A stretch of 64,000 nt of DNA from Candidatus Aminicenantes bacterium (GTDB lineage: Bacteria; Acidobacteriota; Aminicenantia; Aminicenantales; JAFGBC01). The notes below the pieces were generated by a model. It did not search any database. It was not told the origin of the DNA and worked only from the letters and a program-made list of their open reading frames with translations. Below, piece by piece: positions 2 to 5,414 of the stretch (position 1 is its first letter; every line of letters begins with the position of its first letter). The position numbers and the translations under genes were made by a program. The stretch lies in NCBI GenBank assembly GCA_963702005.1, contig OY969696.1, positions 3,456,001 to 3,520,000 of the forward strand, read 5' to 3'.

Positions 2-934
2 ACAGCGACGCGGATCGCGGCGGTCGCCCCGGCGCCGTCATCTCCGAGCCTTCTCTATGCCGTCGCCTATGACCAGGGCGTCGCCAAAAGCGCGGATGCC
101 GGCCGGACCTGGAAAATCGTCTGGCCTATTTACGGCTGCGAATCCATCCCCAGCTTATCCGTCCATCCTAAAAATTCGAACCGCCTGCTGGTCCTCCTCG
201 AATCGGGCTGAACGAAATTCTTTTACGTCTTCAGGTCTGAAGACGGCGGGAAAAAATGGGCGAGAGTCCTGGACGAGCTCAGAATCCGGGATCTGGCCAG
301 GGCGGCGAACGATCCCGAGCACATCGTCTGCTGCGGCGAAACTCTCGACGACCCAAAATATCCAATGGCCTTATTCGCCTCACGGGACGGAGGAAAGACC
401 TGGACGAAGATCCGCATCACCTCCGTGAGCGGCTGCGGTTACGCCGTCGCCCTGGACCCCAAGGACAGCCGCCTCATCTTTGTCGGCGGCACGAAACAAA
501 GCAAGGCCGCCCTGTTCAAGACGGACGACGGCGGGTCAAGCTGGCGCGAGATCACGGGGCCGATCAAAGGGACCGTTGCCGAACTGGCTCTCGATCCGCG
601 GACTTCCCAAACGATCTACGCCGGAACCGCCAACGGCCTGTACCGAAGCCAAAACGGCGGCCAGGCCTGGGAGCGGACGGCCAAGTTCGACGTCCGCGCG
701 ATCAGGGTCGACCCGAACTCGCCCGACCGGATGTGGGCCGGCGGCGAAGACGGCCTCTTCGTAAGTTCCAACGGAGGGACGACCTGGACGTCGGTCCCCG
801 GCCTCACGATCAATAAAATCATCTGCCTCGAGTTCGATCCCAAAAAAGGCGTCCTCTACGTTGGGACGGACGGGGGCGGCCTGTCCATGGCGGCCGTTCC
901 ATCCGCGGCCGACCCGGCCGCACGAGGGCGATGA
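2..934 (+). CDS. Asp-box/BNR-repeat (VPS10/YCF48-like) beta-propeller protein, 5'-truncated, with in-frame TGA at 209-211 (candidate selenocysteine)
   Basis: Frame 2 is open from base 2 to 934 except one TGA. Asp-box motifs lie on both sides of it: KSADAGRTW before; RSEDGGKKW, SRDGGKTW, KTDDGGSSW, RSQNGGQAW, VSSNGGTTW after. The ORF track shows only the 365-934 part. Confidence 0.85.
209..245 (+). promoter_or_regulatory. Candidate bacterial SECIS element (UGA + hairpin)
   Basis: TGA at 209-211; perfect stem CGTCTTCA (226-233) / TGAAGACG (238-245) with loop GGTC starting 22 nt after the UGA; CAGGTCTG is identical to the apex of the E. coli fdhF SECIS. Confidence 0.75.
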
Positions 935-959: not shown

Positions 960-2732
960 ATGAAGAAGTTTTTTAAGAATCGTTCGCTTCTCGTCGTCGG
1001 GGCTCTTATCCTGGGACTATTCCTCGGCCTCGGAAACTGCAAAATCTCGCTCGGCCCCGCACCGGCCCTTCCCCACCCCAGCCCCCATCAGGCCTATTTG
1101 AAAGCGCTGACGTCCATCCCGCCCCGAAACTCCGGCGGCCTATGGCCTTTTTACAAGGACGAATTCGGGCCCGCCCTCCCCGACCGGACCGAGTCGGAGA
1201 TCGACCAGATGGCGGACAGGGCCAAGCGGCTCAAGGAGGCCGGGTCCCAGTACATCGGGCTCTGGATTCCCTGGGGCGAGGTCGAGCCGGAGCCGGGCCG
1301 GTTCGAGTTCGGGAAATTCGAGCGGCTCTTTGCCGCGGCGGTCGCGACGGGCCAGAAGCTCGAGATCAACCTGGCCAGCTCGATGTACCCAGCCTGGTTC
1401 TACGAATCGGCCCTCCGGCCCGATTCCGGCGCGAATATGCTCTGGTTCTGGAACGATGCCGGTCCCGTTCCCGGCGCGGCCCCGGAGATAGCCCTCGGGA
1501 CGCATCATCAATACCAGCCGAGACGCGTCCAGTCCCCGCCCCTAAGTCTCTGGGCGCCGCCGGAGGTCAAGGCTTACCTTAAAAGGTTCGTCGACCGGGC
1601 CTTCGATGACCTGCTCGATAAATGGGCGCCGGCGATCCTCTACGTTCAGTTCAGCCTGGGACGCCTCAACGAGCCGACCTACCCGGACCGTGAGCACTTC
1701 TGGTGCTACGACCGCAGCGCCGTCGCGGATTTCAGGGCCCGGATGGAGGCGAAGTACGGGACGATCGAGCATCTGAACGAAGCCTGGAGGACGAATCATC
1801 CCGATTTCTCCACGATCGGACCGCCCGTCCCTCCCTTCAAAGGCGTCAACCCCATCCACCGCATGGAATTCTTCAACTGGTACCGGGACTCGAAACGGCG
1901 CTGGGTCCTCGAGGCAACCGGCTGGATCCAGTCCCGGCTGAAGCCGTGGCAGCGGAACCTTGTCTATGTGGCGGGCGGTTCGGGCGACGTCGACCTCGCC
2001 GAACAAGGACAAACCTATCTCGAGCAAGGCCCCGGCCTGGATTGGACCGATTGGACCCTCGCCCCCGCCGTCAAGGACACGATCCGGGCCATGGAGGATA
2101 ATTTCTGGATCGTAAGGAAGGCCAAGGAATTCGGCTGGGCCCTGCAGTACGCGGGTGTGGCGGGGTTGAGCGAAGCGGAGGAGTTGGCCCTCTGCAAACA
2201 TAATCCGGTCTGCCGCGAGGTCCCCCGCTACGCCGAGTCGATCGGCTTCACGGGCCCCATCTACGCCCAGATCCCATTCCTGAGGAAGGACTTCCGGCAG
2301 CCCGAGTTCGTCGCCGAGCAGATCTATACCTACGACGCGGGCTACCACGGCCTCCACTGGACGAACGACGAGAACTTGTTCGGTCCCCAGGACGGGGCCC
2401 GCCTGCAGTCTCTCGAGCGGGCCTGGCGCAACATCCAGCTCTATTTCGGGACGGACGCCCAACCTCCGGCCATCCTCGCGGTCCAGGAGCAGGTCTCGGG
2501 CCGGACGGCCGAGGTCAGGTGGACGACGGACGAGCCGAGCGAAGGATTCGTCCTCTACGGCCTGTCGCCGAGCCGGCTCAACCGGCTGTCGTCCCTCGAC
2601 GCCCTCGCCGCCGATCACTCCATTTCGCTCGAGGGGCTGGCCGAGAACGCGACCTACTATTACTCGGTCTTTGCAACGGACGCCTTCGGAAACTCCTCGG
2701 TGACCCCCGTCAAGTCCTTCGCCGTCCGTTGA
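960..2732 (+). CDS. Secreted glycoside hydrolase-like protein (GH42/GH14-like TIM barrel) with C-terminal Fn3-like domain
   Basis: N-terminal hydrophobic signal; IPWGEVEPEPGRFEF, LGRLNEPTYP, FWCYDRSAVADFR and KYGTIEHLNEAW motifs; C-terminal VRWTTDEPS...YG...H...L.GL...TYYY Fn3 pattern. Confidence 0.65.
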   Translation: MKKFFKNRSLLVVGALILGLFLGLGNCKISLGPAPALPHPSPHQAYLKALTSIPPRNSGGLWPFYKDEFGPALPDRTESEIDQMADRAKRLKEAGSQYIGLWIPWGEVEPEPGRFEFGKFERLFAAAVATGQKLEINLASSMYPAWFYESALRPDSGANMLWFWNDAGPVPGAAPEIALGTHHQYQPRRVQSPPLSLWAPPEVKAYLKRFVDRAFDDLLDKWAPAILYVQFSLGRLNEPTYPDREHFWCYDRSAVADFRARMEAKYGTIEHLNEAWRTNHPDFSTIGPPVPPFKGVNPIHRMEFFNWYRDSKRRWVLEATGWIQSRLKPWQRNLVYVAGGSGDVDLAEQGQTYLEQGPGLDWTDWTLAPAVKDTIRAMEDNFWIVRKAKEFGWALQYAGVAGLSEAEELALCKHNPVCREVPRYAESIGFTGPIYAQIPFLRKDFRQPEFVAEQIYTYDAGYHGLHWTNDENLFGPQDGARLQSLERAWRNIQLYFGTDAQPPAILAVQEQVSGRTAEVRWTTDEPSEGFVLYGLSPSRLNRLSSLDALAADHSISLEGLAENATYYYSVFATDAFGNSSVTPVKSFAVR

Positions 2733-2793: not shown

Positions 2794-3390
2794 ATGAAGA
2801 AAACCCTTTGGATCACGCTTTTAATTACGGCGGTCTTGACCCTCGGGATCGCGACGGCCCAGGACAAGCCCATGACCGCGGACCAGCAGAAGGCCGTCGA
2901 AGCCTACCTGAAAATGGGAGCCGTCGGCCCCAACCACGAATTCTTGAAGACCTACGCCGGGGAATGGGCGATGACGACGAAGGCCTGGATGACGCCCGGC
3001 CAGCCCCCGTCCTTGAGCCGGAGCACGATCACGGCCGAGCTCATTCACGGCGGGCGCTTCCTGCTCATGCGCTACAAAGGCACCATGTTCGGCCAACCCT
3101 TCGAGGGGCTCCAAATCATCGGCTACGACAACCTCCACCAGAAATACGTCACCTTCTGGATCGACAATACGAGCACGCTTTATTATCTGACCTCGGGGAC
3201 GCGCGACGCTTCCGGCAAAGTCCTCAACGAGACCGGCCTCTGGCCTGATCCCGTGACCGGCAAGGACGTCAAGATCCGGGCCCGGACCATCTTCATCGGC
3301 CCCGACGAATTCAGCTACGAGCAGTTCATGCCCCTCCCGGACGGCAAGGAATTCAAGAGCATGGATAATCATTGCACGCGCAAGAAGTGA
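2794..3390 (+). CDS. DUF1579-family exported protein
   Basis: Signal peptide; GPNHEFL..YAGEW, GGRFL, FEGLQIIGYDN...YVTFWIDN motifs; RBS AAGGAG. Confidence 0.8.
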   Translation: MKKTLWITLLITAVLTLGIATAQDKPMTADQQKAVEAYLKMGAVGPNHEFLKTYAGEWAMTTKAWMTPGQPPSLSRSTITAELIHGGRFLLMRYKGTMFGQPFEGLQIIGYDNLHQKYVTFWIDNTSTLYYLTSGTRDASGKVLNETGLWPDPVTGKDVKIRARTIFIGPDEFSYEQFMPLPDGKEFKSMDNHCTRKK

Positions 3391-5414
3391 AGCGCGCGGC
3401 CTTCGCCGCGCTCGCCCTGGCGGTTGTCCTGGGACTTTTCGCCGGAAGCGGTGAAGCCCCGGGCCGGGTCAATTTTCCCAACGCTTCGGATATCATTCCC
3501 GACCTGGGAGGGACGCCGCTCCGCTTCATCCCCAATCCCGACCCTGCGCCGGGCAGCGCTCTTTTCCTGGCCAAAACTCCTCGCTATGCGCTCAGCGTCT
3601 GGAGGAACGGGTTGGCCTTTGACGGAACGCGCATGGTTTTCCGGGGAGCGAATCCGCGGGTCGACGTCGTTCCGCTCAATCCGCTGGAGTCCCGCATGAA
3701 CATATTTCTGGGCGACGACCCGGCGCGCTGGAAGACGGATATCCCCTGCTTCGGGGCCGTTCTCTTCAAGCGGGTCTATCCCGGGATCGACCTTAAGGTC
3801 TACGGCGTCGCAAATAGGATCGAATACGACTGGATTCTGGAACCGGGCGCCGACCCGGGCAGGATCCAATTCGCCTATGAGGACATCCGGGATGCCGCCG
3901 TCGACGCCGAAGGAAACCTCGTAGTCCGAACAGAGACCGAAGAGATGGTTCAGGGGAAACCTCGGGTCTATCAAGAATCTTGCGACGATCGGGATGCGGT
4001 CGAAGCGTCGTTCCAAAACCTCGGTGGCGCGGCGTTCGGGTTTAAGCTCGGCCCCTACGATCGCGGCCGCCCCCTTGTCATCGACCCGGCCGTCCTGGCC
4101 TTTTCGACCTATCTCGGCGGCGACCTCAACGATTACGCTTCCGCGGTCGCTGTGGACGCGGCCGGATACATCTACGTCACGGGCAAAACCCGGAGCCCCA
4201 ATTTCCCGGTCAAGACGCCGTTCCAGACCGACCGCAATATCGAGGACGCCTTCATCGCGAAATTCACTCCATCGGGACGCTCCCTCGTCTACTCCACATA
4301 CATCGGAGGAAGCGATTACGACTTCGCCCTGGCCATCGCCGTGGACGCGGACGGCTGCCCGACGATCTCCGGCGGGACGCTGAGCTCGGACCTGCCGCTC
4401 AAGAATCCCATCCAGCGGCACTATCCGGGCCGTGACGCATTCGTCACCAAGCTCTCCGCGGCGGGAAACAGCCTCGTCTATTCGACCTACTTGGGCGGGA
4501 GCGATCTCGATGAGTCCTACGACCTGGCCCTCGACGCGGCCGGGAACGCGGTCGTCGTCGGCCGCACCGAAAGCGCGGATTTCCCGACCCTAACCCCGCT
4601 CCAGCGCGACCGGCCTCGCGCCGACGGCTTTGTCGCCAAGTTCGCCGGCGCGACCGGCGCGCTCGTTTTTTCGACCTACCTCGGCGGGAACGGCGTCGAC
4701 ACCATCAACGGCGTCGCCCTGGACGGACAGGGAGCCGTCTACCTGACCGGCAACACCGAGAGCACGGACCTGCGGCTCAAGAATCCTTTCCAAACCGACC
4801 AACCCGGAACGGATGCTTTCGTCATGAAGCTCGCGCCGAACGGGCGGTCTCTTATCTTCGCGACCTACCTGGGCGGCAGCGCCTACGACTACGCGACCTC
4901 GATCGCGGCGGACGCGGACGGCGCCGTCTATGTCGCGGGCGGGACCGACAGCGCGAACTTTCCCCTCAGCAAGCCGTTCCAAAAAAAGCGGCCCGGCCGG
5001 GACGCCTTTCTGGCCAAGTTCGATCCCTCCGGGAAGAGCCTCGTCTACTCGACCTGTCTCGGCGGAAGCGACTACGACCTCGCCTGGGCCGTCGCCCTCG
5101 GAAGCGACGGCAGCGCCTCAATAGCCGGCGAGACGATGAGCCCGGACTTCCCGCGCAAGGGCTCTTTTCAGGGCGATAAGCCCGACTCGGACGCTTTTAT
5201 CGCCAAGTTCAAGCCGGACGGGAGCGGACTCGTTTACTCGAGCTACTTGGGAGGGAACGGCGCCGACTACGCCTACGGCGGCGCCCTGGACGCGGCCGGA
5301 AACTTTTATGTCGTGGGCTGGACGGCGAGCACGGACTTTCCCACCGTTAAGGCCTTCCAAACCGACCGGGGCGACCGCGACGCTTTCTTGGCTAAGGTCG
5401 TGTTCGGCCGCTGA
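3387..5414 (+). CDS. SBBP-repeat beta-propeller protein with DUF7948-like N-terminal domain
   Basis: GTG start overlapping the upstream stop (GTGA); signal peptide; YPGIDLKVYG..IEYDWILEPGADP N-domain; seven STYLGG...AVD..G..YV.G.T.S.DFP...DAFV.K repeats. Confidence 0.88.
   Translation: MKRAAFAALALAVVLGLFAGSGEAPGRVNFPNASDIIPDLGGTPLRFIPNPDPAPGSALFLAKTPRYALSVWRNGLAFDGTRMVFRGANPRVDVVPLNPLESRMNIFLGDDPARWKTDIPCFGAVLFKRVYPGIDLKVYGVANRIEYDWILEPGADPGRIQFAYEDIRDAAVDAEGNLVVRTETEEMVQGKPRVYQESCDDRDAVEASFQNLGGAAFGFKLGPYDRGRPLVIDPAVLAFSTYLGGDLNDYASAVAVDAAGYIYVTGKTRSPNFPVKTPFQTDRNIEDAFIAKFTPSGRSLVYSTYIGGSDYDFALAIAVDADGCPTISGGTLSSDLPLKNPIQRHYPGRDAFVTKLSAAGNSLVYSTYLGGSDLDESYDLALDAAGNAVVVGRTESADFPTLTPLQRDRPRADGFVAKFAGATGALVFSTYLGGNGVDTINGVALDGQGAVYLTGNTESTDLRLKNPFQTDQPGTDAFVMKLAPNGRSLIFATYLGGSAYDYATSIAADADGAVYVAGGTDSANFPLSKPFQKKRPGRDAFLAKFDPSGKSLVYSTCLGGSDYDLAWAVALGSDGSASIAGETMSPDFPRKGSFQGDKPDSDAFIAKFKPDGSGLVYSSYLGGNGADYAYGGALDAAGNFYVVGWTASTDFPTVKAFQTDRGDRDAFLAKVVFGR

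Follow-up and report, generated by a model that had tools for sequence, protein, structure and literature searches.

Of the bacterial selenoproteins known to date, almost all are redox enzymes of the cytoplasm, and many have a thioredoxin-like fold. In the Escherichia coli MG1655 record, codon 140 of fdhF is a UGA, which is followed within the coding sequence (CDS) by a hairpin whose GGUC loop starts at +22; a bulged U below the upper stem has a role in this selenocysteine insertion sequence (SECIS), and the protein is a molybdopterin enzyme with selenocysteine (Sec, or U) in a U-H-x-P motif. A quite different group of proteins, the GH74 enzymes, is built of two propellers of seven blades each, and a pair of catalytic Asp residues lies in the cleft. 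Table 1 of a 2026 review (PMC13188914) catalogues 119 prokaryotic selenoprotein families or subfamilies, some of them extracytoplasmic, such as the FCYXU TonB-dependent receptor; the predictive logic is the same as that used here, namely, in-frame UGA, bacterial SECIS (bSECIS), Cys homologues, and Sec machinery. Here we describe a propeller gene, henceforth the target, whose 3' part opens a 64,000-nt stretch of a Candidatus Aminicenantes genome (contig OY969696.1 of GCA_963702005.1). The genome, G000, is a single 4.31-Mb contig (C1) of 60% G+C, and the stretch, which we call the window and number from its first base, is G000:C1:3,456,001-3,520,000. The target carries an in-frame TGA at window 209-211 that, judged from comparative sequence analysis, is very probably a genuine Sec codon with a conserved recoding hairpin, an arrangement shared by at least 14 paralogous genes for secreted beta-propellers that apparently constitute an undescribed, expanded selenoprotein family.

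The target is a BNR/Asp-box beta-propeller protein, passing the Pfam gathering cut-offs for PF15902 Sortilin-Vps10 (112.6 bits, cut-off 33; 2.7e-32), PF13088 BNR_2 (50.8, cut-off 31.4), and PF14870 PSII_BNR (46.9, cut-off 27). Its NCBIfam matches were driven by the repeats and comprised NF045728 ("F510_1955 family glycosylhydrolase"), Ycf48, BamI, and PorZ; no selenoprotein model was among the NCBIfam matches of the target or its family. NF045728 matches all 22 family members, and relative to its curated cut-off of 175 bits, the target part scored 174.8 and the orthologue from G001, a genome of the same genus, scored 189.9 by way of six repeated stretches on a 246-position profile. The names Ycf48/HCF136, Sortilin Vps10, and NF045728 reflect shared Asp-box repeats only, and none denotes a selenoprotein family; relatives are also named "photosystem II stability/assembly factor-like" by the sources. 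By profile comparison with solved proteins, the best relatives were GH74 xyloglucanases (2cn2_A, 6p2n_A, and 4lgn_A; E 1.5e-40 to 1e-38), with Ycf48 and sortilin ranked well below them. The likeness to GH74 includes a length of ~700 aa, repeated Asp-box blades, secretion, and a glycoside hydrolase gene adjoining the target, but the matches are only partial, with the two halves aligned out of register, and the likeness is one of profile similarity only. We know of no GH74 enzyme with Sec or Cys at the loop containing the TGA; in most Ycf48/HCF136, Sortilin, and NF045728 relatives, this GG-U-G loop is absent altogether.

A first-pass annotation, made from the DNA sequence alone, had proposed the target as a Sec-containing beta-propeller and noted that BNR propellers are not known as a classical selenoprotein family. 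The latter remark agrees with Table 1 of PMC13188914, in which none of the 119 entries is a BNR, Asp-box, sortilin, GH74, Ycf48, or propeller protein. The terms BNR, propeller, and sortilin are likewise absent from the main texts of that review, of deep-Sep, and of BSepDB, although the supplementary family lists of the latter two may hold the family. A search of the full-text literature returned no report of selenocysteine in BNR/Asp-box proteins, and none related by title for xyloglucanase or Aminicenantes. The proposal itself is supported by a conserved TGA column, the hairpin, the Sec machinery, and Cys homologues, with the amendment that the target is one member of a large family rather than a lone gene.

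Frame 2 of the window reads ...PIYGCESIPSLSVHPKNSNRLLVLLESG-TGA-TKFFYVFRSEDGGKKW..., and the TGA does indeed interrupt an otherwise open frame, both flanking stretches (2-208 and 212-931) being open. The earliest ATG, GTG, or TTG codon in frame after it is the ATG at 365, as had been stated. The window holds only the 3' part of the gene (2-934). The start, with a signal peptide MKRLSTSALIALCAIVGTLAAG... (MKRLSTSAL...), is ~1,047 nt before the window, in another frame (a point to which we return below), and the intact protein is secreted and has ~660 residues. The first-pass annotation had anticipated that gene callers would break the gene at the TGA, and this is what has happened: in public data, the target orthologues of nine clusters (identity with the G001 orthologue, 52-100%) were called as 419-434-aa proteins, and all nine end in ...LESG.

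When G000 and 60 relatives were searched at the protein level in all six frames, many paralogs were flagged as containing one TGA. Fourteen G000 loci, 30-35% identical to the target, have the TGA at the same alignment column, and the family motif is (hydrophobic strand)-G-G-U-G-x(3-5)-(V/I)-Y-R-S-V-D-G-G. The TGA and hairpin are also kept in L010, the target orthologue in G001 (71% identical), and in L065, one of two orthologues (with L066) on metagenome contigs; thus, the conservation that was to be looked for is present, with the TGA in orthologues and in 13 further paralogs and the hairpin always accompanying it. Family proteins with an intact N-terminus have a signal peptide and ~620-830 residues. 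Two other matches in which a stop had been flagged were not Sec forms: that in G016 lies in a broken frame (...SEAPSAYYGYDEILRSQDGG), and that in G002 reads ...AGSGSPSHVYKSTDGG. As a separate observation, the Sec forms L046 and L048 (G000) and L011 (G040) have a C-terminal extension of ~170 residues ending in ...TYxYxLxAVDxxGREGxxATVT(I/V)(R/K); this extension resembles an extra domain of the Ig/Fn3 type.

The perfect 8-bp stem with a GGTC loop just 3' of the TGA, which the first-pass annotation had likened to that of fdhF, was found as described (Table 1), and the fdhF record shares both the GGUC loop and the octamer CAGGUCUG. The loop starts slightly later, at +23 or +26 in the family versus +22 in fdhF, and the host proteins are unrelated, the family being BNR propellers with G-U-G/T. 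A published bSECIS model stipulates an apical loop of 3-9 nt with G in the first two loop positions, an upper stem of 4-16 bp, a UGA-to-loop distance of 16-37 nt, and, further, a minimum free energy of at most -7.5 kcal/mol (PMC13188914). The target hairpin, with a 4-nt loop starting GG, an 8-bp stem, 22-nt spacing, and -11.0 kcal/mol in a 30-nt window, agrees with the model on all four counts, as the first-pass annotation had suggested should be examined; the spacing is 19 nt in most paralogs.

All 14 TGA-bearing paralogs have the hairpin (C/A)GUCUACA-GGUC-UGUAGAC(G/U), except that two have a GUUC loop, and one of these two folds as a 7-bp stem with a 6-nt loop. Scanning G000 for open frames in which a TGA precedes a stem of 6 bp or more, closed by a G[GU]U[CU] loop, gave 18 matches, of which 13 are family members; in these 13 the loop starts, counted from the U of UGA, at +23 in nine copies and at +26 in four, including the target. 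The stem is written in the codons of V/I-Y-R-S-V-D, usually TAC AGG TCT GTA GAC, and over all 14 Asp-boxes following U, the choices are TAC/TTC, AGG|AGT, TCT|TCC, GTA|GTG|GAA, and GAC|GAT. In nine other YRSxDGG Asp-boxes of these proteins, the codons are CGG, CGC, or AGG with AGC or TCC; none of the nine uses AGG-TCT, and none forms the hairpin. Across 23 sequences, pairing is retained in 98.9% of cells, as compared with 15-55% when the partners are slid. Compensatory changes occur at two of the eight pairs, GC<->AU in five rows and AU<->UA in the target and its orthologue; in the latter case, U-A replaces A-U at the price of Y->F and V->E, with the pair retained. Among the target, L010, and L065, the 24-nt hairpin block is identical, and the flanks diverge. 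The hairpin is thus under selection at the nucleotide (RNA) level. Note that its significance comes from comparison and not from the single sequence.

Cys homologues had been expected if the codon specifies Sec, and close homologues do align C with U: L044 versus P0154 and L055 versus P0151 have U opposite C at 63-64% identity, and the paralog L062 also has Cys at this column. We compared a profile of the N-terminal part with 1.84 billion representatives, and the best 150 matches included 13 representatives (at 50% identity; 421-483 aa) that finish exactly at the profile end, in ...G, together with 37 full-length relatives whose U column holds 12 gaps, six C, four N, four S, three T, and a few others. 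A quick tree of N-terminal parts has the Sec forms scattered, forcing at least nine changes, and three clades with 100% support by the Shimodaira-Hasegawa-like approximate likelihood ratio test (SH-aLRT 100) unite U and C forms. Distant homologues mostly do not have the loop at all.

The Sec machinery, the presence of which had been named as a check, is complete in G000: selA, selB, selD, and tRNA-Sec all occur, in one locus (765,691-770,106; Table 1) that has six Sec-propeller paralogs around it, each of them on the minus strand. This adjacency was seen for G000 only; 11 related loci have no tRNA gene, and in G445 SelA is ~0.85 Mb from two Sec copies. SelA is present in all four of the other genomes holding a Sec form and in 26 of the 61 genomes of the order sample. 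A permissive genome-wide scan of TGA-containing frames yielded 381 candidates, mostly neighbouring genes in the same frame. Two genes for secreted proteins with a thioredoxin fold and a U-G-S-C motif have SECIS-like hairpins with GGU(C) loops at +21 and +22 and are, by sequence, likely additional selenoproteins of known type; it follows that the G000 SelB should read such loops. Apart from the sel locus, L008:1492-2871 (-), that is, G000:C1 ~461,983-463,362, encodes a 460-aa protein that lacks a GTPase domain, having just winged-helix domains 2 and 3 of SelB, and that may be a free SECIS-binding module.

The hairpin 19-mer occurs 13 times in G000 versus zero for the reversed control, and among 401 genomes sampled across the phylum, it was found in one other, as a single stray match. 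A one-genome-per-species scan found 13 loci, eight of which are BNR genes with an in-frame TGA, residing in three Candidatus Aminicenantes metagenome-assembled genomes and one from Candidatus Zixiibacteriota; the remaining five have no TGA and are about the number expected by chance. Counts of the pattern per genome were five in G001, two in G445, one each in G040 and G446, and none in G002. In metagenomes, 80 loci were found with the target protein: the sole orthologue contig reaching the site (L065) has U and the hairpin, the L066 contig stops before the site, and 78 are distant homologues without such a TGA. The base call of the TGA, which the first-pass annotation had wanted to see independently verified, is reproduced together with the hairpin by a contig from a peat metagenome (X5), with zero differences over this stretch; among contigs, confirmation of the TGA rests on this X5 piece and not on X1 (a wetland run) or X2.

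Several observations weigh against selenocysteine insertion at this TGA, and they should be set beside the evidence above. Eight further G000 paralogs have no TGA, their residues in this position being S, P, S, T, Y, C, or T (one of them being frameshift-shortened just after it), so that non-Sec copies have S, P, T, Y, or C opposite U. Cys homologues are a minority; in our first search, the U column of 120 hits contained 113 gaps, two A, two V, two S, and one C. Folding of the single target sequence is not beyond chance (61 nt, -15.9 kcal/mol, z -1.42, with 19 of 200 shuffles equal). The hairpin is almost invariant, and the covariation accordingly comes from two pairs; moreover, 7 of the 23 aligned rows were themselves picked by the hairpin pattern. 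The family stem is a perfect 8 bp without the bulged U of fdhF and without its long lower stem. An Rfam scan of window 150-330 gave no SECIS match, only a chance hit to EBER1 (E 1.3); we gave this null result no weight, as bacterial SECIS elements seem poorly covered there. Lastly, an identical 19-mer encodes YRSVDGG in BNR genes of Dehalococcoidia (L037) and Roseivirgaceae (L041) that have no TGA, and the target copy is frameshifted in the assembly.

The L037 and L041 genes bear directly on whether the hairpin is a SECIS at all or is instead a by-product of Asp-box coding, or some other RNA element. They indicate that the 19-nt sequence can arise from coding alone, and such a sequence might have been a stepping stone to a SECIS; in addition, 30 of 132 other Asp-box windows in the GC-rich G000 fold at -8 kcal/mol or better. 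Against a coding by-product, these codons are found in none of the nine other YRSxDGG boxes of the same proteins, the Val contributing the 3' arm is replaced by G or A in two aligned Cys homologues (YRSGDGG and YRSADGA), the compensatory flips alter amino acids yet retain the pairs, and the distance from loop to UGA is fixed in codon steps. We therefore judge this explanation very improbable. That the TGA simply ends translation, as a normal stop or through a nonsense mutation, leaving a ~420-aa protein and an untranslated or separately started remnant, would agree with the public gene calls and with TGA being the commonest stop in G000, where it ends 982 of 1,950 long coding-like frames. The 240 codons after the TGA, however, are open, in frame, and conserved at the protein level in 14 paralogs and in orthologues; the break falls inside a blade, with no start codon until 365, and a nonsense mutation would not recur at one column in copies that are only ~30% identical. 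A stop of either kind is thus highly unlikely. UGA reassignments occur in some uncultured bacteria, and a reassigned code or a suppressor tRNA inserting Trp, Gly, or Cys might be considered. Yet TGA terminates half of the long G000 frames, several family members included, at their conserved C-terminus; its use as a true stop means that recoding is site-specific and the code is not changed. Recoding is limited to one column, always with a SelB-type hairpin, and the sole tRNA with anticodon UCA reported in G000 is tRNA-Sec. Reassignment consequently has a very low probability in our estimation.

A more serious alternative concerns this particular copy rather than the family. Near genome position 3,455,352, 648 nt before the window and ~860 nt upstream of the TGA, the assembly has a 1-nt insertion, CGT[T]CTG, and the two frames of the target join after ...GHGDEGR. 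The target could therefore be a decaying pseudogene of a Sec family, producing no full-length protein, its TGA having once been a Sec codon; if the insertion is real, the G000 copy is inactive. Two more family members in G000 have one frameshift each (the 756,153 copy, a Sec form, and the non-Sec 1,976,572/1,977,806 copy; frames otherwise open), making 3 of 22 paralogous loci, as might be expected of a large family shedding members. The single indel apart, however, both target frames are fully open and well conserved. L010 is unbroken except for its TGA and reads ...GHGDEGRLAVHPKAPDTVFAAG at the insertion site, which means that G000 has one extra base. The motif GHGDEGRL(A/S)VHP is read straight through in all eight orthologous predicted proteins that contain it, and in L066 as well, and in a ~93%-identical contig of 2,957 nt from the wetland run X1, precisely this one base is missing (L001:852). 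Since the extra base is absent from all relatives examined, the frameshift is private to the G000 assembly. Programmed frameshifting was rejected because the relatives do not have the extra base. The insertion is either an assembly error or a recent lesion; isolated indel errors would be plausible in a single 4.3-Mb contig. We regard decay of this copy as a substantial possibility, though short of an even one.

If the TGA is a Sec codon, as we consider very probable for the family, its translation can be pictured as follows. The protein consists of BNR/Asp-box blades, probably in two beta-propellers as in GH74 enzymes. As in ordinary bacterial Sec insertion, SelB carrying Sec-tRNA(Sec) would bind the 8-bp GGUC hairpin, whose start lies 14 nt past the UGA and whose sequence doubles as the codons for the Asp-box of that very blade (V/I-Y-R-S-V-D-G), and Sec would be delivered in place of termination. 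The Sec would then reside in a Gly-rich loop (GG-U-G), a feature missing from the majority of BNR blades. The first-pass annotation had offered two redox partners for the Sec, the Cys of YGCE upstream and that of SGCG downstream. The former remains the likelier: it lies 24 residues before the Sec and occurs in 9 of 14 Sec paralogs (the others having Ser or Ala), in 10 of the 13 truncated representatives, and in all nine target orthologue clusters. The latter is not maintained, as the SGCG Cys is missing even from L010, which has SGLG. Hence, the partner, as far as sequence can suggest, is likely the YGCE Cys. Given the usual topology of an Asp-box blade, Sec would occupy the loop preceding the strand that runs on to the Asp-box, with the Cys immediately ahead of that blade's first strand; the two would then be on the same face of the propeller. 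Usually with a Cys 23-24 residues upstream, Sec may thus create a redox or metal-binding site on one propeller face, outside the cytoplasm.

The family would have grown to 14 Sec-bearing paralogs in G000, with six of them around selA-selD-selB-tRNA(Sec); to our knowledge, an expansion of one selenoprotein family to 14 copies in one genome is unusual. We offer tentatively, and with more doubt than confidence, that the propellers represent a novel extracytoplasmic class of selenoenzyme and, in this Aminicenantes lineage, a main client of the Sec machinery: a double propeller resembling GH74 may have gained a Sec site, frequently Sec-Cys, in a new Gly-rich loop and radiated to at least 14 paralogs per genome around the sel locus, performing Se-dependent redox or metal chemistry on extracellular substrates, e.g., plant or humic polymers in anoxic wetlands. 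Were this so, it would be the first selenoprotein with a glycoside-hydrolase-type fold. A secreted family of Sec beta-propellers would itself widen the chemistry attributed to selenium. Reading through the TGA would add ~14 genes to the selenoproteome of the organism and correct a systematic mis-annotation, as public calls cut these proteins at the Sec codon. The hairpin would also illustrate clearly how a SECIS can overlap a conserved protein motif, constraining RNA and protein alike, and its compactness (a natural 20-nt SECIS with an 8-bp stem and GGUC loop) would suit it to reporter work.

Table 1. Positions of the target, its putative recoding elements, and related features of G000.
Feature	Coordinates	Strand	Basis or remark
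CDS before Sec codon (...TATRIAAV...LLVLLESG)	window 2..208	+	open frame 2, Pfam matches
Cys codon TGC of YGCES, candidate selenylsulfide partner	window 137..139	+	24 residues before Sec codon
In-frame TGA, predicted to be read as selenocysteine	window 209..211	+	same alignment column in 14 paralogs; kept in L010/L065; C opposite U in close homologues
CDS after Sec codon	window 212..931	+	240 residues, further Asp-box blades; frame 2 open
Putative SECIS hairpin	window 226..245	+	8-bp stem 226-233 (CGTCTTCA) and 238-245 (TGAAGACG), perfectly complementary around apical loop GGTC 234-237; codons V-F-R-S-E-D of Asp-box
Terminating TGA	window 932..934	+	no hairpin behind
Next gene, secreted GH42/GH14-like glycoside hydrolase	window 960..2732	+	26 nt downstream; Glyco_hydro_42 8.2e-13
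SelA	G000:C1:765,691-766,785		5.3e-143
SelD	G000:C1:767,020-767,940		364.6 bits vs cut-off 125
SelB, full (GTPase, beta-barrel, winged-helix domains)	end at G000:C1:769,992		directly before tRNA-Sec
tRNA-Sec	G000:C1:770,011-770,106		ARAGORN, one found
Sec-propeller paralogs upstream of sel locus	G000:C1:756,153-764,721	-	four in tandem
Sec-propeller paralogs downstream of sel locus	G000:C1:772,371-774,854; 780,282-782,831	-	two
U-G-S-C gene, Thioredoxin_7/Thioredoxin_2 + TPR, secreted	G000:C1:1,013,349-1,015,055	+	
U-G-S-C gene, Thioredoxin_7/Thioredoxin_2 + TPR, secreted	G000:C1:2,162,572-2,164,131	-	
Frameshift in 756,153 copy	G000:C1:757,300-758,226		Sec form
Frameshift in 1,976,572/1,977,806 copy	G000:C1:1,977,700-1,978,000		non-Sec form

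The surroundings of the target may be described briefly. Upstream and on the opposite strand is a non-Sec paralog (G000:C1:3,451,897-3,454,143 (-)) with AGS-S-G at the Sec column, and an unrelated open frame (G000:C1:3,454,242-3,454,910 (+)) lies between it and the target. Downstream, the GH42/GH14-like gene is a possible operon partner of the target; its product also has a C-terminal domain resembling the purple acid phosphatase N-terminal domain. It is followed by genes for a DUF1579 protein (window 2794-3390) and a protein with DUF7948 and SBBP beta-propeller repeats (3372-5414), and these three downstream genes look like a cluster encoding secreted proteins.

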